The notes beneath the pieces were generated by a model, which made no database searches, was not told where the DNA came from, and worked only from the letters and a program-made list of their open reading frames with translations. From Escherichia coli (lineage in GTDB: Bacteria; Pseudomonadota; Gammaproteobacteria; Enterobacterales; Enterobacteriaceae): DNA of 31,100 nt. The stretch lies in the NCBI RefSeq assembly GCF_003334765.1, contig NZ_QOWT01000040.1. One strand, given 5' to 3'. This document shows positions 1,049 to 13,711 of the stretch, in pieces (position 1 is the stretch's first letter; the number at the start of each line of letters is the position of its first letter). Position numbers and translations under genes: made by a program.

Positions 1049-1539
1049 AATATTGGAAAGGTTACTTTGTTTTGAAGTAGCCTTTCGTCCTTCAATATTC
1101 ACGATTACTTATTGCTATTACCAAGTCCAGTCGAATCGAAGAACATCTTTTATCTGAAACGACTCCTAATACCAGGTTGAAGCCACAATATCTCTCGCAT
1201 AAGTAGACCAAAGAAAAATTATGATATTAACTATGTGATTTTTTTTAGTGTTAAGTTGAATAATTATATACTGGAGAGTTTTCTGTACACTACCAATTGC
1301 TGGTTCATCTGTTCTGCCGCTGATGTTTCTGACTAATCTCCCGGTGACACAGAACTGTCCCTCTCTACCAGCCTTTATTCGACTCAATGTCCGGCTGCTG
1401 ATACGCAGTTATCCCTTCGTATCAATGACTGACTCTTAAACGCAATGCTTTGGTTGCTGGCGTATCTGACAGCTTCTTCGGCGTGAAGGTCGTTGTGTAA
1501 GTATACTTCTTGGTTTATTTAGGCTATATAAAACCATGA

Positions 1540-2436
1540 CTATGACTGGCTGTTTTCAGTAAGAGTCTTATCATCCAAAGAATTTATTCTAGAAATTCTT
1601 TTTAACTCATTAAGATAATCAACCTCGTTTTCTAAGAACCAATGAAGAACTTTAGAGTTGCCAAGTAATTTATTAATATATGACTGGATTATAACGAATT
1701 TCAACATATCTGAACCATACTCGGTTTGAAGTTTTTTCGTTTCTTCCGAAGTTGTTGCCATTTCTTGTTCCAGACGAAGTATGGTTTTTTTTATGTCCTT
1801 TTTATAGGGAGTGTTTTTCCCTTTATTTACTATCATCGATGACGGTGTTGCATCCAAGATGCTCATTGCAAATTTTTTACTATAATTATCAAAATTAATC
1901 ATTGTACCGACTGCTTCAATTTGACGAATTGGCTTCATTTTCCTCAAAACGTCAAATGTAGCCTTAGGTATAGGTTTATCAGAAAGTTTCGCAATTACAC
2001 TTGGATCTATGCCGTTCATCACATTAGCTTTATCTTTTATGGCATCAACAGATATGCCCAAAGCAGCACTAAGTTTTTCAATTGATACTTTTGCCAGAGA
2101 CTTAATTATCATTCTATGTTCTTCAACTACATTTATATGATTCACTTGTTTGTTAGGAGTGAAAGCATCATCTATGCTCGAAAGTATACATGGAGCTTTT
2201 TCTATATCTAAGTCTTTTAAAGCCTCAACCCTTAAATGGCCATCAAGTATCTTAGTGACATCTTTATCTTTGTCATAGAATACTATTATTGGTTCAATAA
2301 TACCCAAGCTTTCGATAGAGGTAACTATTTGATGATATTTATGGCTTCGCTTTACGTTTTCTAATAATTCCTTAGATGGAATTAACTTATTAGTTTCCAG
2401 GTAAATAAAATTTTTGCCAAAACGTATCTGAATCAT
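1540..2436 (-). CDS. ParB/Srx-like protein B (298 aa), third gene of the operon
   Basis: ParB-like N-terminal layout (IIEPIIV...ILDGHLRVEAL...APCIL) followed by a helix-turn-helix-like segment (SIEKLSAALGISVDAI). ATG overlaps the stop of the upstream gene by 4 nt (ATGA). Confidence 0.6.
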   Translation of the reverse strand: MIQIRFGKNFIYLETNKLIPSKELLENVKRSHKYHQIVTSIESLGIIEPIIVFYDKDKDVTKILDGHLRVEALKDLDIEKAPCILSSIDDAFTPNKQVNHINVVEEHRMIIKSLAKVSIEKLSAALGISVDAIKDKANVMNGIDPSVIAKLSDKPIPKATFDVLRKMKPIRQIEAVGTMINFDNYSKKFAMSILDATPSSMIVNKGKNTPYKKDIKKTILRLEQEMATTSEETKKLQTEYGSDMLKFVIIQSYINKLLGNSKVLHWFLENEVDYLNELKRISRINSLDDKTLTENSQS

Positions 2437-3329
2437 TTTGATACCTCTTTGTTTACTGGGTTTAATATCTGAGATGGTAGTTCTGAAAGATTCTCTTGTT
2501 CAAGTATATTTTGAAAGCTTTTATTCATCATTATGATGTTAAAAATCTCATTTATTATTAGTAGATTGGTTTTTATAAATTTCGAGTTGTTATAAACAGA
2601 TTTATGTTCAGCGATACTATTTTCATAAAGCTCAATCAACTCCTCTGCAGTCATCCTTTTTGATGGTTTGTGATAATAAAATCCGGCTGCTTTTGCACCT
2701 TTATTCCCAACTGTTCTTTGATTTAGAATGTATTTTATCTTTATAATGTCCCGACTTTTTATTAATTTTTTATCATATGCTTCGGTAAGAATATCTTGTG
2801 CTTCCTCAGTTTCACATCTTGCAAATTGCACTGCGAGATACAGAGGCAAATTACCCCGTTCGACTGCTGAGAGAAGTTTATGCTCTCCCTTATCAAGAAG
2901 CATATTAATACTGCTCACCCAGTTCGATGAATATCCAGTAATCTCACTTATTTCGGAGTCTGAAAGTCCTCTGATTTTCATGTCTTTAATCACCTGTAAT
3001 AACTCATTAGAACGTGGTCTTCTCCTTGCAATGTTTTCAACTAAACTCATAACGTAAGCATCTTCTTCTGATACATCTCTTATAATTGCTGGAATAATAG
3101 TTTCACCTAATGCAACAAGAGCCTCTATTCTCCCTTGACCACAAATTAAAGCATATTTGAAATCGTCTTCATCAATAGCTCTTACGCTTATAGGCTTGCT
3201 TAATCCTCTTTTTTTTATGCTTTCCTTTATTTCTTCATGCACTACCTTATTTCTTGTTCGTGGGTTAAGAAATTTTATTTTTGCAATCTCAATTTGAATT
3301 ATTGGGAATTCATTTTTTTCAGGCAGCAT
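2433..3329 (-). CDS. ParB/Srx-like protein A (298 aa), second gene of the operon
   Basis: Close positional match to ParB/Spo0J N-terminal domain plus HTH: PISVRAI...ICGQGRIEAL...IPAIIRDVSEEDAYVMSLVENIARR...LSDSEISEITGYSSNWVSSINMLL. GAGGG Shine-Dalgarno 7 nt upstream; start overlaps the recombinase stop by 11 nt. Confidence 0.65.
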   Translation of the reverse strand: MLPEKNEFPIIQIEIAKIKFLNPRTRNKVVHEEIKESIKKRGLSKPISVRAIDEDDFKYALICGQGRIEALVALGETIIPAIIRDVSEEDAYVMSLVENIARRRPRSNELLQVIKDMKIRGLSDSEISEITGYSSNWVSSINMLLDKGEHKLLSAVERGNLPLYLAVQFARCETEEAQDILTEAYDKKLIKSRDIIKIKYILNQRTVGNKGAKAAGFYYHKPSKRMTAEELIELYENSIAEHKSVYNNSKFIKTNLLIINEIFNIIMMNKSFQNILEQENLSELPSQILNPVNKEVSK

Positions 3330-4875
3330 ATAGTTCCCTCACTTTCATGCGAGTAATAATTTGTAGAAATTTATCAAGATTATCAAATCTATAGAGATCT
3401 AACCGAATGTTGTTTGTTTCCATCATACACATTTTACTATATTCGTTTTCAATCTTTGGTATGATATAAAAATCAAGAGGTGAAATATTTTGTGAATTCA
3501 TTCGTATAACAATTGTTATGTCTGCTTTCTGTGAGTTATCAAACCGGACTTTCCATCTAAGTTTACCTGATTTCATATGTATGCATTTAGTAACAAGGAC
3601 GGAAATTAAAAACTCATCATTGATGTAAAGCATTGGGTAATATTTATACTCGTCTATATGACAGTTACTTTTTAATATTTCGCCCTTAAAATCCTCAATT
3701 ATCTCTGAGTAAAATGATCTTAGTGCTTCATTTATTTGGAGATAGCTGTAATCATGTTCTGGCTTATAACCAATCAAAGTATATGCTCTTAAAAGACCAC
3801 CAAATCGGGTTCTATAAACAGAAGATGAAGGGCCTGTATCATCTTCATCAATGATAAAGCCTGATAGTTTTCCATTAGATTCTAATTTTTCTTTTAGCTT
3901 TTCTAATAGATCTTCATTAGTCAAATGAATGGATCGGAGCTGAATTATTTCTTGAGCTTTATTATATTTTTTCTTTGAAATAATTGGTTTATATGCCTTG
4001 TCACATCTAATCCATTCATGTTTGGGGTTTTTTACAAGCTTACTTTTTAGTTTAGATGAGGTTTTGTTATATATGTTGTTTCCAATATATTTTTCATTTG
4101 TCAAAATTTGATGTATTTTTGCACGAGTCCATGATGTTCCATTTTCTGCAGGTATGCTCTGTTCATTTAATCTCTCAGCAATAATGAATTCTGGGACGTT
4201 ACTATCTATAAAGAGATCATAGATTCTATTTACAATTTTTATTTCATTTTTTGGTCCCGGAATTAATATTACCCTATCTGTTTGAATACTCTTTCTTTTG
4301 CGGAAATTCAATATTTCTTTAGCTATGCCATTTTCGTCTACTAAAAGACGTCTCAGCCCATAACCAGCCATACCGCCTTGATGATAACCAAGCTTTATTA
4401 AATTTACTTGCCCTATAAATACCTTTTCAGATAGATTCCTGCTGTGATATGCAGCACTTGATCTTTTTATATTCAGTATAACAGAGGACTCTAAAGGGAA
4501 ATCTTTAGTGGGTATAGGTTCGGAACAATATATAAGATCTACACCATTTCTTTCAAATAGAAAGGAATAATATGCAGCTTCATCACTATTTTGAAAACGA
4601 CCAAAACGGCTCACATCATAAAATAATACAGCCTGTATATCTATTTTCTTTTGTTCTACATCGCTAAGTAACTGCTGCAAAGAATGCCTGCCTACGATAC
4701 TGACTCCGCTCTTACCTGCATCATCGTAGGTATAAGCGATTTCCATATTGTTCTTTTCAGCATAATCTTTGATATATTCAGACTGATTATGTAAAGAATA
4801 TTGCTGATGGTCGGTAGACATCCTCAAGTACTGTGCGACCCTAACTCTATGATTTTTTTCATTTCCGCTAGCCAT
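3319..4875 (-). CDS. Large serine recombinase-like protein (about 518 aa; track ORF starts at TTG 4881, first ATG at 4875)
   Basis: Resolvase-type catalytic domain motifs in the right order: YLRMSTDHQ (presumed nucleophile Ser), DDAGKSG, RHSLQQLL, VSRFGR. Then a recombinase-domain signature: GGMAGYGL ... WTRAKIHQILTNEKYIGN. GAGG Shine-Dalgarno upstream of the ATG. Confidence 0.7.
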   Translation of the reverse strand: MASGNEKNHRVRVAQYLRMSTDHQQYSLHNQSEYIKDYAEKNNMEIAYTYDDAGKSGVSIVGRHSLQQLLSDVEQKKIDIQAVLFYDVSRFGRFQNSDEAAYYSFLFERNGVDLIYCSEPIPTKDFPLESSVILNIKRSSAAYHSRNLSEKVFIGQVNLIKLGYHQGGMAGYGLRRLLVDENGIAKEILNFRKRKSIQTDRVILIPGPKNEIKIVNRIYDLFIDSNVPEFIIAERLNEQSIPAENGTSWTRAKIHQILTNEKYIGNNIYNKTSSKLKSKLVKNPKHEWIRCDKAYKPIISKKKYNKAQEIIQLRSIHLTNEDLLEKLKEKLESNGKLSGFIIDEDDTGPSSSVYRTRFGGLLRAYTLIGYKPEHDYSYLQINEALRSFYSEIIEDFKGEILKSNCHIDEYKYYPMLYINDEFLISVLVTKCIHMKSGKLRWKVRFDNSQKADITIVIRMNSQNISPLDFYIIPKIENEYSKMCMMETNNIRLDLYRFDNLDKFLQIITRMKVRELYAA

Positions 4876-5157
4876 GCACAAAACCTCATGGATGATTCAA
4901 TACAATGTAGAGGATAAAATTGATCAAATTTTAACCGAATTCAACTGTTTTATCATTGATTAGAGCGAATTTGGTAGTTCTTCGAGGTGTATGATAATCG
5001 AGAAGAGATGTGAATTATTTAGCTGATATGACCGACAGCTTTCGTTATGTGGCCTCAAGGTACCCATTTGTAAATGGCTATGCTTAGTCCACATAGGTTA
5101 ATGGTGTGATCATTAATTCTTCAAATAAATCAAGATAGTTAACCCATCATGGAAGAG

Positions 5158-6387
5158 TTATGCGGCAATAACTTTGTATTTTTGAGACGAAACATAGTCA
5201 CTCCACCATTGCATGAGAACCACACGTTCTGTGAGATACTCTGCACGATTGTAGGCTGCAATTATTTCATCTTTTTTCGAGTGGGCAAGGGCGGCTTCTA
5301 AGACATCAGTTCTAAACTTGCCACACTCCTCAGCCGCCGTTCTAGCGATTGATCGCATACCATGAGCTACAAGCTCACCTCCGAAGCCCATACGGATTAT
5401 AGCCGCATTAGCTGTTTGTTCATGCATGTGATTGAGTGGAGCTTTGATACTGGGAAAAACCCACTCTCTATGCCCGCTGATGGCTTTCATTGAATCCAAG
5501 ACTCGCAAAGATTCTTTGCTCAGTGGAACTTTGTGAGGCTTCTTCATTTTCATAAACTCCGCCGGGATGTTCCACATGCTGGTTTCTATATCAATATCTG
5601 ACCATCTTGTGCGAACAGCTTCACCAGGGCGAACCCATGTGAGAAGTTGCCACTCAATCAGTAGCCTTGTTTCTAAACGGATAGAAGCATTGTTTAGAGC
5701 AACCAGGAAGCGGGGGAGTTCGGAAGGGGGTAATGCTGGCATATTCTGTTTTTTTGGCTTGCTGAACCGTTGCCCCAGGTTGTCAGCCGGATTGAATTCT
5801 ATGAGTTCTTCTGTTGCTGCATAGCGGAAAATTTCATTCAGGCGGGATATGACGCGGCGAAGTGTTTCAAGGACACCTCGTTTTTCTATGGGGTCTAAAT
5901 GCTGTTTAAGCATTTTAGGGCGAATCTCCTTAATGGGGGTATCACCCAACGTTGGAAAGATATTTCTCTCTAGGCTTCGCCAGATGTCGTTAGCATGATC
6001 CTGGGAGATGCCTGACGTTTTGACTTTCTCATCAAGCCACTTCTTGGCTACTGCTTGAAATGTATGTTCCGTTGCATCCTTAAGGGCATTGGCTTTGTGG
6101 GTGTTATGAATTTGTGGGTCTATACCATTTGCAAGCAACGACAAGTACTCATCACGTAAAGCTCGTGCCTTCGCAAGTGTAAGGTGAGGATAGGTTCCTA
6201 AGCTCACCTTAGTTCGCTTTTTGGTCACAGGCACTGCATATCTGAAATACCAATTTTTCTTTCCTCCCTTCGCTAAGGGGGCGATTCGCAGGAGCAAACC
6301 ATCGCCGTCAAAAAGGTTAACCTCTTTCTCGGCAGGTTTGGTGCTTTTGATTTCAGTGTCAGTGAGCTTCTTAGCGATTTTTGCCAT
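5158..6387 (-). CDS. P4-family tyrosine integrase (409 aa from MAKIAKKLTDTEIK; the track ORF extends upstream to 6531)
   Basis: N-terminus typical of P4/CP4-57-type integrases; C-terminal tyrosine recombinase motifs (HGMRSIARTAAE ... AHSKKDEIIAAYNRAEY); sits directly beside the ssrA 3' end. Confidence 0.85.
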   Translation of the reverse strand: MAKIAKKLTDTEIKSTKPAEKEVNLFDGDGLLLRIAPLAKGGKKNWYFRYAVPVTKKRTKVSLGTYPHLTLAKARALRDEYLSLLANGIDPQIHNTHKANALKDATEHTFQAVAKKWLDEKVKTSGISQDHANDIWRSLERNIFPTLGDTPIKEIRPKMLKQHLDPIEKRGVLETLRRVISRLNEIFRYAATEELIEFNPADNLGQRFSKPKKQNMPALPPSELPRFLVALNNASIRLETRLLIEWQLLTWVRPGEAVRTRWSDIDIETSMWNIPAEFMKMKKPHKVPLSKESLRVLDSMKAISGHREWVFPSIKAPLNHMHEQTANAAIIRMGFGGELVAHGMRSIARTAAEECGKFRTDVLEAALAHSKKDEIIAAYNRAEYLTERVVLMQWWSDYVSSQKYKVIAA

Positions 6388-6553
6388 GTTTGGGACCCTC
6401 ATGTTTTGGACCCTTTGTGTTGGGTCCCAAAAAGGGTGCCATAACGAGTAGATTCTAGCAATTCTCGGTAGACTACTATAGACGTAAAAAAGCCCGCAAG
6501 GCTGGTTCCATGCGGGCTTGATAGACTTCACTGAACTTCAATATATCAAAAAT

Positions 6554-6916
6554 TGGTGGAGCTGGCGGGAGTTGAACCCGCGTCCGAAATTCCTACATCC
6601 TCGGTACTACATGCTTAGTCAGTCTTTACATTCGCTTGCCAGCTGCGGACGGACACGCCACTAACAAACTAGCCTGATTAAGTTTTAACGCTTCAACCCC
6701 AGGCAGGGCTTCCACGCGATCTCTTTTGGGTTTGACCTCTCTTGATCCCCGTCCTAAGAGCGGAGGCTAGGGAGAGAGGGCTCTAAGCAGGTTATTAAGC
6801 TGCTAAAGCGTAGTTTTCGTCGTTTGCGACTATTTTTTGCGGCTTTTTACGAGGCCAACCGCCCCTCGGCATGCACCTTGGGTTTCGCAAATCCCGTCGA
6901 ATCCAGAATCAGCCCC
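6554..6916 (-). ncRNA. ssrA: tmRNA (SsrA), 363 nt
   Basis: Reverse complement reads GGGGCTGATTCTGGATTCGACGGGATTTGCGAAACCC ... GGGTTCAACTCCCGCCAGCTCCACCA, i.e. the tRNA-like 5' and 3' ends of tmRNA including the CCA end. Confidence 0.92.
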
Positions 6917-7130: not shown

Positions 7131-7613
7131 TTAACGGTGGGCGTTTTTCATGATACGTGCTTTATCCACCTGCCATTCGCGCTCTTTGATATCTGAACGT
7201 TTATCGTGCTGTTTCTTACCTTTGGCGACGCCGATTTTCACTTTGCACCAGGCATTTTTCCAGTACAGGGAGAGCGCCACTACGGTATAGCCTTCTCGAT
7301 TGACGCGACCGTACAATGAGTCCAGTTCGCGCTGGTTGAGAAGTAACTTGCGGGTACGGGTAGGATCGCACACCACATGCGTGGAGGCCACGGCCATTGG
7401 CGTGATGTTAGCGCCAAACAGAAATGCCTCTCCGTCACGCAGAAGGACGTAGCTGTCGCTGATATTGGCTTTTCCTGCGCGCAGGGATTTAACTTCCCAG
7501 CCTTGCAGGGCAAGTCCCGCTTCGAACTCTTCTTCGATAAAGTATTCGTGACGGGCGCGCTTGTTAAGCGCGATGGTCGCTGAACCAGGTTTATGTGCTT
7601 TTTTCTTCGTCAT
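7131..7613 (-). CDS. smpB: SsrA-binding protein SmpB (160 aa)
   Basis: Recognised translation ([28 protein letters not shown]...); located beside ssrA. Confidence 0.92.
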
Positions 7614-9052: not shown

Positions 9053-10714
9053 TTACGCTGCAAGCAGTTCTTTCGCATTCGCCAGTGTATTACGTGTGAC
9101 TTCACTGCCACCAAGCAGGCGCGCCAGCTCTTGTAACCGCGCTTTTTTATTCAGGGATTGCATATGCGTTTCTGTCATCGCACCATCGGTTTCTTTGCTG
9201 ACAAAATAGTGTTGATGACCACATCCCGCGACTTGTGGCAGGTGGGTAACACACATCACCTGAGTTGATTCGCCGAGTTGACGCAGCAGTTTGCCGACAA
9301 CTGCCGCTGTTGGACCGCTAATCCCTACATCCACTTCATCAAAAATCAGTGCCGGGGTTTCCATTTTACGCGCCGTGATGACCTGGATTGCCAGTGCGAT
9401 GCGGGACAATTCACCACCGGATGCGACTTTGGCAATAGGCTGCATTGGCTGACCTGGGTTGGTGGTTACCCGAAACTCAATACGATCGGCACCGTCAGCG
9501 CCCAGGTGATGCTCGTCAAATTTAACATCGATCGTAAACTGCCCATGCGGCATTGAGAGCGCATGCATACTGTCGGTGATCAGCTGTGCAAGTTCTTCTG
9601 CATATTGCTGGCGTTGTTGGTGTAATGCGCGCGCGATTTCCAGTGCCTGCTGATGATGTTTCGTTACCGCCAGCGCAAGCGTTTCTTGTGAGTCGGCCTG
9701 ATCGTCCAGTTGCTGCTGTTCTTCCAGTAGCGACTGGTAATACTGTGGCAATGCCTCAGGGCTGACGTGATGTTTACGTGCCAGCGAAATCTGTTTTGAG
9801 ATGCGCTGTTCAAGTTCAAATAGTCGGTTGGGATCGAGATCCAGACGATCGCAGTAGTGGCGCAGTTCATCGCTGGCTTCAGCAATCTGGATGGTAGCTT
9901 CTTCCAGCATATCAAGTACGCCGGACAGTTTGCTGTCCATGCCAATCAATTCGCTCACCAGTTGTTTAGCCGTGTAAAGCTGACTTTGCAGGTTTGCGTC
10001 TTCACCGTCGGCCATTAATGCCAATGCATTCTGGCTGGTGGTCAGCAATTGACCGCTGTTCGCCAGACGTTTGTACTCTTCGTCGATTTGTTCAAACTCT
10101 CCGGGCTGCGGATTAAATTCGTTAAGTTCTTTTAATTGGTATTGCAGCAGTTCCGCACGGGCGGCGCGTTCCTGACTTAACTGTTGATGATGCGCGAGGT
10201 CACGGCAGCTTTGATGCCACAACTGATAACGTGCGGTCATTTCCTGCAGTAGAGAGGTTTCATTGGCATAGCCATCAAGCAGGAATTTTTGGTGCTCAGG
10301 TTTGGTGAGTAATTGATGAGCGTGCTGACCATGGATCTGAATCAGCAACTGACCCAGTTCGCGCAGTTGTGACAGAGGAACAGCTGTACCGTTGATGAAA
10401 CCACGGGAGCGACCATCGCTGCTGATCACGCGACGAAGCAAACATTCATGCCCGTCTTCAAGCTGGTTTTCTTCCAGCCAGCGCAGAGCCGCTGGCGTAT
10501 CTTTCAGAGAAAAACGGGCGCACAGGTCAGCGCGAGCAGCGCCGGTACGCACCATGTCGGCTTCAGCGCGACCACCGAGACAAAGACCGAGGGCATCTAT
10601 TGCAATAGATTTACCCGCGCCGGTCTCGCCAGTTATTACGGTCATGCCGCTATGAAAATCAATCTCAAGCTCACGAACGATAGCAAAGTTGCTGATGGTC
10701 AGTTGTGCCAACAT
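9053..10714 (-). CDS. recN: DNA repair protein RecN (553 aa)
   Basis: Recognised translation; N-terminal Walker A (GETGAGKS); SMC-like coiled-coil middle region. Confidence 0.93.
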
Positions 10715-12448: not shown

Positions 12449-13711
12449 TTACTCCGCCACACTCTCGCGCAGCGGTTTCACAGGAAAAACTTTTACCTGC
12501 TTAATCATATTGTCCTGTACGTCGAGAATATCGATATCGTACTCGCCAATACGCACGCGGGTGCCTGCGACAGGGATCTCTTCCAGTGCCTCAAGAATGA
12601 CGCCATTAACCGTGCGGGCATCATCTTCCGGTAGATGCCAGTTAAAGGCTTTGTTGATTTCCCGCACGTTGGCGGTGCCATCGATAATCACCGAACCGTC
12701 GTTTTGCGGCGTGACCTCTTCGGCAAGTGTTGGCGACATCGACGTAGTGAAATCGCCGACAATCTCTTCCAGAATATCTTCAACCGTCACCAGCCCCTGA
12801 ATGTCTCCATACTCGTTGACGACCAGGCCGACTTTCTTTTTGTTGCGCTGAAACTTTACCAACTGCGTGCTGAGCGGCGTACCTTCCGGCACAAAATAGA
12901 TCTCGTCCGCGGCGCGCAGCATGGTTTCTTTGGTGAACTCTTTTTTCTCCGACATCAACCGCCAGGCTTCACGTACTCGCAGCATACTGATGGCGTCGTC
13001 CAGCGAATCACGGTAGAGCACGATGCGCCCGTGAGGTGAGTGGGAGAGTTGGCGCAGAATCGATTTCCAGTCATCGTTGATATCAATACCGATAATTTCA
13101 CTGCGCGGCACCATGATGTCATCAACGGTCATTTTTTCCAGATCGAGCACCGACAGCAGCATATCCTGATTGCGACGGGAAATTTGTGAGCGTGATTCGT
13201 GCACGATAGTGCGCAACTCTTCTTTGCTCAAAGAGCCGCTAACCACGATATCGGTTTTGATACCCATCATGCGCATCAGCATACGGGTGATAGCATTCAG
13301 CAACCAGACCAGCGGCATCATCAAAATTTGCAGCGGAGCCAGCAGAAAACTACTCGGATAAGCGACTTTTTCCGGGTACAGCGCGGCAATGGTTTTCGGC
13401 AATACCTCAGCAAATACCAGTACGACAAAAGTCAGCACACCAGTCGCAATTGCCACGCCCGCATCGCCGTACAAACGCATCCCAACAATAGTGCCGAGCG
13501 CGGAGGCAAGAATATTGACCAGGTTATTGCCGATTAACACCAGGCTTATCAGGCGGTCTGGCTTACGCAGCAATTTTTCGACGCGTTTGGCCGAGCGATT
13601 ACCCTGTTTCGCCATATGTCGCAGACGATAGCGGTTGAGGGTCATCATTCCGGTTTCGGACCCGGAAAAATAGGCTGAAATGACCACCATGATGATCAGA
13701 ATAATGATCAA
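12449..13711 (-). CDS. corB: CNNM-family inner membrane protein CorB/YfjD (DUF21-CBS-CorC_HlyC); start uncertain by a few codons
   Basis: Recognised translation and synteny. The track ORF begins at a TTG; the in-frame upstream extension (EHISTTT) has no ATG, so the true start is unresolved. Confidence 0.8.
   Translation of the reverse strand: MIIILIIMVVISAYFSGSETGMMTLNRYRLRHMAKQGNRSAKRVEKLLRKPDRLISLVLIGNNLVNILASALGTIVGMRLYGDAGVAIATGVLTFVVLVFAEVLPKTIAALYPEKVAYPSSFLLAPLQILMMPLVWLLNAITRMLMRMMGIKTDIVVSGSLSKEELRTIVHESRSQISRRNQDMLLSVLDLEKMTVDDIMVPRSEIIGIDINDDWKSILRQLSHSPHGRIVLYRDSLDDAISMLRVREAWRLMSEKKEFTKETMLRAADEIYFVPEGTPLSTQLVKFQRNKKKVGLVVNEYGDIQGLVTVEDILEEIVGDFTTSMSPTLAEEVTPQNDGSVIIDGTANVREINKAFNWHLPEDDARTVNGVILEALEEIPVAGTRVRIGEYDIDILDVQDNMIKQVKVFPVKPLRESVAE

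Follow-up and report, generated by a model that had tools for sequence, protein, structure and literature searches.

The analyzed stretch of Escherichia coli DNA (hereafter the window; 31,100 nucleotides (nt) of contig NZ_QOWT01000040.1, assembly GCF_003334765.1) encodes a serine recombinase, WP_000146253.1, followed by two ParB-like proteins, ParB1 and ParB2. This recombinase represents an unrecognised subfamily of large serine recombinases, and the three genes (the trio) form a self-contained module that is widespread in genomic islands and large plasmids of many phyla. As judged from the structural model, the zinc ribbon and the coiled coil of the serine integrases are replaced in this subfamily by a DNA-recognition tail of the homing endonuclease type. 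Relatives were sought in one genome per species across 100,044 species, which yielded at least 579 confirmed relatives, and the best 80 of them were used in the locus comparisons.

The open reading frame of the recombinase (3319-4881, minus strand) gives 520 amino acids (aa) when read from a TTG codon. The RefSeq start, an ATG at 4875 with GAGG 9 nt upstream, gives 518 aa, and thousands of database members are represented by this identical 518-aa sequence. Pfam analysis revealed a Resolvase domain (PF00239) at residues 16-154 (E 1.4e-21) and a Recombinase domain (PF07508) at residues 212-314 (E 1.1e-21), the latter aligning with the recombinase domain of the SPbeta integrase. The sequence of the catalytic domain matched TP901-1 and TnpX in the PDB. 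The nucleophile is Ser20, and R18, S20, D52, S56, G57, D87, R90 and R93 were 100% conserved in 80 homologues; to judge by these residues, the recombinase is apparently catalytically competent. The preliminary description of this DNA, which had reported intact catalytic motifs and a recombinase-domain signature in the middle of the protein, was thus borne out by the Resolvase match with the eight invariant residues and by the position of PF07508. Its reading of the C-terminal cysteines as isolated (SNCHID, TKCIHM, KMCMME), with no CxxC pair, proved exact. None of the five cysteines of the 518-aa protein (117, 291, 405, 431 and 483) belongs to a C-x(1-5)-C pair, only C117 and C431, each isolated, are conserved in the 80 homologues, and no Pfam match to the zinc-ribbon family (Zn_ribbon_recom, PF13408) was obtained for the recombinase. 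Neither a truncation nor a frameshift of the gene was seen: it is full length, and 17 homologues of 491-543 aa with 31-45% identity were alignable end to end, down to the last residues.

The suggestion that the C-terminal region is a domain of a different kind was confirmed, since the alignment with the integrases ends before the tail and the fold of the tail differs. The full-length AlphaFold (AF2) model, built on a 72-sequence alignment, reached a predicted local distance difference test score (pLDDT) of 91.3. It contains no antiparallel pair of long helices; its one helix of 26 residues is part of the nuclease-fold domain. In the Foldseek comparison with the PDB, the SPbeta, Bxb1 and phiC31 integrases were matched over about 320-370 columns only, corresponding to the catalytic and recombinase domains. 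The match to the SPbeta integrase (E 2.7e-16) spanned about 325 columns, and the structural alignment with the integrases ended at approximately residue 325. Hence, neither a zinc ribbon nor a coiled coil was found via Pfam, the AF2 model or the Foldseek search against integrases.

The model predicts that the tail consists of a helical HNH_repeat-like module and a PD-(D/E)xK fold and is not a degenerate zinc ribbon. A weak HNH_repeat match was detected at residues 321-366 of the window protein, and PF18780 (HNH_repeat) was matched by 20 of 38 family members at E<=0.1; F358, L361 and Y365 are invariant in this four-helix module. The last domain of about 145 residues matched no Pfam family. In the model a strand starts at P-D452 and the following strand carries D468-x-Y470, which, when mapped by the secondary-structure pattern only, would correspond to the PD...(D/E)xK arrangement with Tyr in place of Lys; this third motif position, Tyr470, is 96% conserved. 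Among the 80 homologues N382, R386, W441, D452, R458, N463, D468, P473, N488 and R496 are 97-100% conserved, and the conservation of D452, R458, N463, D468, N488 and R496 shows therefore that the tail is under strong selection. No link at the sequence level was found between the tail and solved nucleases or any other solved chain, and hhalign gave no usable alignment with Hjc. In comparison with PD-(D/E)xK nucleases of the I-Ssp6803I, Hjc and RecU type, to which the tail has no detectable sequence similarity, a conserved Tyr takes the place of the (D/E)xK lysine, and the domain forms part of a recombinase instead of standing alone.

Residues 316-518 were compared with 1.84 billion cluster representatives, giving 1,444 matches at E<=1e-3, 562 of them at E<=1e-10. 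Domain parsing of the best 150 tail matches distinguished two architectures. The first, that of the window family, combines the catalytic domain, the recombinase domain, one helical repeat and the C-terminal domain of about 145 residues. In the second, the sister family, the catalytic domain, the recombinase domain and the first helical repeat are common to the window family, and 3-7 tandem HNH-associated helical repeats replace the nuclease-fold domain; these proteins (P0123, P0149, P0159, P0166, P0207, P0221 and P0258; loci L094-L098) also lack a zinc ribbon. The sister family of repeat-bearing serine recombinases appears to be uncharacterised.

The window recombinase has the catalytic Ser domain, the long E-helix and PF07508 in common with the large serine recombinases phiC31, Bxb1, SPbeta SprA, A118, TP901-1 and CcrB of SCCmec, and CcrB gave the best NCBIfam similarity (residues 11-311). 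The zinc ribbon and the coiled coil normally read the attachment (att) sites and set directionality in serine integrases. In contrast to these enzymes, the window recombinase has no zinc ribbon, coiled coil or Cys4 motif, and its family is obligately paired with two ParB-like genes and almost never occurs in phages. Neither att sites nor a directionality factor were identified for the window recombinase family.

Wherever the contig was long enough, the 80 loci had the two ParB-like genes behind the recombinase gene, in unchanged order and usually overlapping. With L003 and L085 (the second E. coli form, described below), for which this held as well, the comparison covered 82 loci, and the order was also noted in a metagenomic homologue. 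In the window the recombinase stop and the ParB1 start overlap by 11 nt, and the ParB1 stop and the ParB2 start by 4 nt (ATGA). The pairwise identities of the trio proteins correlate with r = 0.86-0.92. The two ParB-type proteins co-evolve with the recombinase, and the operon is translationally coupled. ParB neighbours were found in none of the three contexts of the sister repeat-array family, and since that family is devoid of the nuclease-fold domain, the ParB pair is tied to the nuclease-fold tail.

ParB1 matched PF02195 (E 5.4e-13), contains a RepB domain and aligned with Spo0J (residues 8-188), ParB, Noc and KorB over the N-domain and the helix-turn-helix (HTH) region. Like these cytidine triphosphate (CTP)-dependent clamps it possesses the ParB_N boxes I-III (NPR24, C63-G-x-G-R67 and E98-N99-x-x-R102), of which N22-P-R24, G64-x-G66-R67 and E98-N99-x-x-R102 are conserved at >=96%; the CTP-binding boxes are apparently complete. 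ParB2 has a conserved D65-G-H-x-R69 motif, no ENxxR box and a RepB match stronger than that of ParB1, and its predicted nucleotide pocket is degenerate. The two proteins are only about 30% identical over 63 residues. The trio differs from the ParB/Spo0J-type clamps in its tandem paralogues, the DGHxR motif of ParB2 and the RepB-family C-terminal halves. No ParA-type gene was present in or beside the operon in the window, L085, pAt and the other loci examined. A small gene of about 100-135 aa with an HTH-like motif, divergently oriented just upstream of the recombinase, was noticed in 26 loci (e.g., L017:9347-9650, minus strand, and pAtC58 ATU_RS24150) and is not found in the E. coli copies. 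It had no NCBIfam match and probably encodes a regulator of the module.

The 80 loci come from alpha-, beta-, gamma- and delta-proteobacteria, Acidobacteria, Verrucomicrobia and Bdellovibrionota. The trio was detected in 620 to 655 of 5,426 complete E. coli genomes (about 12%), always as one chromosomal copy, either of the ssrA type (about 590 copies) or of the argW type (about 65). In BL21 only the island integrase and the trio remain, followed by IS1. The recombinase family was found on 68 of 72,556 plasmids, among them large repABC-type and conjugative plasmids, and in 1 of 50,697 phage records; plasmid At (pAt) of Agrobacterium fabrum C58 also carries the trio. None of the 655 trio-bearing E. 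coli genomes had two copies, the expectation being about 7 by a rough estimate that assumes independence and ignores phylogeny; the single copy per genome may hint at mutual exclusion. The sole locus from Firmicutes, L004 of a Neobacillus metagenome-assembled genome, has 94.9% DNA identity to the Citrobacter locus L005, flanks included, and is probably a binning or contamination artefact. Because of this near-identity, the presence of the family in Bacillota is doubtful, and the same caution about contamination applies to a match on a 13-kb 'plasmid' of Lactiplantibacillus.

The second E. coli copy of the module (L085; 93.6% DNA identity) resides in a different island, at argW, where its neighbours are AbiL genes, DUF1508, DUF6119 and HxsD/radical-SAM genes. 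The trio of the window lies beside a tyrosine integrase at the island edge, and the L085 trio is internal. In the commonest form of the ssrA island a type I restriction-modification system occurs just past the trio, whereas the window form has a RelA/SpoT-domain gene beyond it. In pAt of A. fabrum C58 the trio is located between an AbiE-type pair and a Fic gene, and elsewhere the trio is repeatedly accompanied by Fic ('mobile mystery protein B'), IS66, SNF2/DrmD-like helicases and tyrosine integrases.

Since these neighbours include AbiL, AbiE, Fic, type I restriction-modification and SNF2/DrmD-like genes, we tentatively favor, at somewhat less than even chances, a module acting in conflicts between mobile elements, phages and hosts, i.e., in defence or exclusion. 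In the proposed mechanism, ParB1 and ParB2 would form a nucleotide-switched, DNA-bound complex marking or scanning a DNA molecule, and this complex would license the recombinase on the chosen DNA. The recombinase domain, the helical module and the nuclease-fold domain would grip the target while Ser20 cuts, and the cut would be followed by strand exchange or by a failure to reseal. The ParB pair would thereby supply the control given by the coiled coil and the directionality factor in phage integrases. As the outcome, DNA would be cut or rearranged in a conflict setting or, alternatively, the carrier element would be stabilised. In a more specific form, which we consider unlikely, the trio would be a three-component DNA-targeting system in which the ParB pair directs the recombinase/PD-(D/E)xK fusion in anti-phage or anti-plasmid defence or as an inter-element weapon, with a structured RNA added in alpha-proteobacteria. 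If true, neither the control of a site-specific recombinase by ParB-type clamps nor the use of a serine recombinase as an immune effector would have a precedent.

Several observations weigh against the conflict reading. The defence role is drawn from the neighbourhood alone, and the contact between the ParB proteins and the recombinase is assumed. The tail domain has no canonical lysine (D-x-Y) and may only bind DNA. The repeat searches in the window and the loci identified no recombination site for the trio, and a search for a parS-like site identified none. No PADLOC-DB v2 model matched the recombinase or ParB1; the sole PADLOC match of ParB2 was that of its ParB-like N-domain to the N-terminus of a type II methyltransferase model. 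In the literature, a paper on E. coli defence islands included, we found no description of the trio and nothing linking the recombinase family to a phenotype. Finally, the E. coli trio adjoins the integrase and is tightly linked to one integrase lineage, an arrangement as compatible with a role in the backbone or maintenance of the island as with cargo.

The main competing explanation, in our estimation rather unlikely, is a maintenance module, whose recombinase would resolve multimers of islands or plasmids, or dimers of excised circles, at a res-like site. The ParB-like proteins would then stabilise the element, either in an accessory architectural or segregation role or as repressors like KorB. 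In favour of this view, plasmid partition and regulation are the classical functions of the ParB/RepB family, the module is carried by large repABC-type and conjugative plasmids, and the recombinase has the catalytic residues of an enzyme that exchanges strands. The E. coli trio stands directly beside the island integrase and persists where the cargo is different or, as in BL21, has been deleted. A precedent is offered by the ssrA islands of Dehalococcoides, whose conserved integration module encodes the CcrB-like DsiB and a ParB-domain protein (McMurdie et al. 2011, PMC3146451). That module consists of six genes, including those for DsiB (its 3' end overlaps attL), a small second recombinase, a RecF-like protein, a 210-aa ParBc protein and Mom (PMC3146451). 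Like the trio, the Dehalococcoides module (DsiB/DsiA/ParBc) joins a large serine recombinase to a ParB-domain protein at the end of an ssrA island. Unlike it, the window island has a P4-type tyrosine integrase, the operon includes no second serine recombinase, and the trio occurs also at argW, on plasmids and in other non-ssrA contexts. Maintenance is further opposed by the lack of a ParA-type nucleoside triphosphatase in or beside the operon, the rarity of the family on plasmids (most copies being chromosomal) and the absence of a repeated site array among the features found. Moreover, a resolvase needs neither a homing-endonuclease-like tail of 200 residues nor two ParB paralogues, and variable, defence-rich flanks such as those observed would be expected of exchangeable cargo.

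It is quite improbable that the trio is a self-mobile cassette of about 4 kb, inserted by the serine recombinase at targets, for instance other mobile elements, picked by the ParB-like proteins. The same module is found in two E. coli islands, and the homology shared by the ssrA and argW copies runs from inside the 3' part of the integrase gene to 51 nt past ParB2. The Rhodobacterales (alpha-proteobacterial) copies have common homology limits near -496 and +220 with differing flanks. These junctions are mosaic, not sharp, and coincide with hairpins. The preliminary description had suggested a search for att-like or inverted-repeat substrates flanking the operon, and no such site was found around the window operon or in the 80 loci. 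Searches for att-like, inverted and direct repeats around the window operon gave only chance AT-rich matches, and flanking repeats in the 80 loci were few and distant (direct repeats in L046, L025 and L071), most loci having none. A cassette of this kind is also at odds with the single copy seen in each trio-bearing E. coli genome and with the two copies on one Pseudolabrys contig, a pair missing from those that exceeded about 76% nucleotide identity.

In L085 the trio is bracketed by direct 3' fragments of a P4-type integrase gene, at 9176-9715 (residues 273-457 of the integrase, frameshifted) and at 13392-13673 (residues 364-457, 71% identity), the second of them beginning right where the homology with the ssrA copy stops. 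They gave rise to the idea that the trio was inserted into the 3' end of a P4-type integrase gene, which was rejected on four grounds. The intA gene of K-12 aligns with the window integrase gene to within 33 nt of its stop in one megablast piece (78.8%), the trio-less truncated integrase results from a deletion mediated by an insertion sequence (IS), a tyrosine recombinase is encoded within 10 kb in only 12 of the 80 loci, and the window contains no displaced integrase fragment. The first three of these points speak equally against self-mobility. The L085 fragments were read as decay or accretion of the island and not as a target-site duplication. Because the junctions are mosaic, most loci have no flanking repeats and the integrase-insertion idea failed, the trio behaves as an exchangeable functional cassette rather than a transposon with defined ends.

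An ordinary phage or prophage serine integrase that lost its zinc-ribbon cysteines, or a truncated or decaying gene, is scarcely credible: the best PHROG match is indeed an 'integrase' family (phrog_95, E 7e-69), and the island around the gene has a low GC content, but that match stops at query residue 399 (profile position 443 of 651), the modelled tail has a different fold with no coiled coil, the family occurs in a single phage record, the island uses a tyrosine integrase, and a degenerate zinc ribbon or truncated gene was ruled out by the homologue lengths, the tail fold and the conservation of length and tail residues across phyla. The preliminary description had supposed a recombinase put to another use. 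The part denying a standard phage integrase stood, on the indirect evidence of the single phage record, the island's own tyrosine integrase and the locked ParB pair; the other use may be inversion, resolution or an effector role.

Upstream of the recombinase, a near-palindrome with a central GATC (Dam site) overlaps a -10-like hexamer and could be an operator or binding site (Table 1). It is conserved in L085 and in Erwinia L053; it is the single match in the window and is not significant alone. A palindromic operator conserved across clades was not found, the GATC near-palindrome being kept among the enterobacterial copies only.

An element of about 130 nt was observed 3' of ParB2, at a distance of 2-60 nt on the operon strand, in 33 of 74 loci, mostly of alpha-proteobacteria (L017:13380-13507, L076:5326-5453, L026:5410-5537 and 30 other loci). 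It is better conserved than the trio genes. Its consensus structure has 25 pairs, 98.9% paired, with 8 compensatory pairs versus 2.7 +/- 1.0 in shuffled alignments; none of 500 shuffles reached the observed value, and the slid controls collapsed. G-U pairs occur on the operon strand only. Rfam holds no family for it, and its covariance model gave no match in the E. coli window or in 49 other loci. Judging from this pattern, it is probably an RNA co-transcribed with the operon in the alpha-proteobacterial clade. For the 300 nt downstream of the trio in the window no folding signal was obtained (z = -0.18), and Rfam returned nothing relevant.

The trio, three minus-strand genes with that of the recombinase first, is situated in a low-GC stretch (31-36% versus about 50%) extending from beyond the integrase down to the start of the window. 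Between ParB2 and the RelA/SpoT-domain gene, about 1 kb (488-1539) has no annotated gene; its part at 747-1539 shows about 96.6% conservation across several hundred genomes of E. coli, and BL21 retains 1196-1539. Positions 73-487 are the 3' part of the RelA/SpoT-domain gene, which in strain ML35 encodes 301 aa and is paired with a hypothetical gene of 332 aa; PADLOC gave only a weak PDC-S33 match. Positions 1-72 differ from the RelA/SpoT-domain gene of other strains and, because IS3-family genes are annotated there in several genomes, are probably the end of a multicopy IS element. At the ssrA/integrase junction (6486-6563) a partial Rfam match to the small RNA IsrM was noticed (42 bits versus a gathering score of 376), which is most likely explained by the att region that ssrA islands have in common and not by a small RNA gene.

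Table 1. Features of the recombinase-ParB1-ParB2 locus and its surroundings (window positions)
Feature	Position	Strand	Remarks
Serine recombinase gene, WP_000146253.1 'recombinase family protein'	3319..4875	-	518 aa, RefSeq
Catalytic resolvase domain and long E-helix, residues 1-160	4396..4875	-	Pfam, conservation, PDB matches, model
Recombinase domain (PF07508), residues 161-315	3931..4395	-	Pfam; as in large serine recombinases
Predicted four-helix module related to 'homing endonuclease associated repeat' (PF18780), residues 316-372	3760..3930	-	
Predicted PD-(D/E)xK (restriction-endonuclease-like) fold, no Pfam family, residues 373-518	3322..3759	-	
ParB1 gene	2433..3329	-	298 aa; ParB_N and RepB domains
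ParB2 gene	1540..2436	-	298 aa; divergent ParB_N and RepB domain
Tail after ParB2 stop	1489..1539	-	51 nt; end of homology common to ssrA-island and argW-island module copies
Near-palindrome AAAATTTGATCAATTTT, central GATC (Dam site)	4915..4935	-	about 45 nt upstream of recombinase start; candidate operator
P4-type tyrosine integrase gene of the island	5158..6531	-	409 aa from RefSeq start; between tmRNA gene and trio
ssrA (transfer-messenger RNA, tmRNA) gene, attachment site of the island	6554..6916	-	annotation and Rfam scan
smpB	7131-7613		window is E. coli chromosome

The presence of the trio in BL21 and in A. fabrum C58 makes its function directly testable with standard genetics. Serine integrases, which are believed to owe their site choice and directionality to the zinc ribbon and the coiled coil, are major tools of genome engineering. 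A subfamily with a homing-endonuclease-type tail and ParB partners would show another route for the targeting and control of serine recombinases, and a dependence on ParB would extend the known uses of the ParB-type CTP switches.

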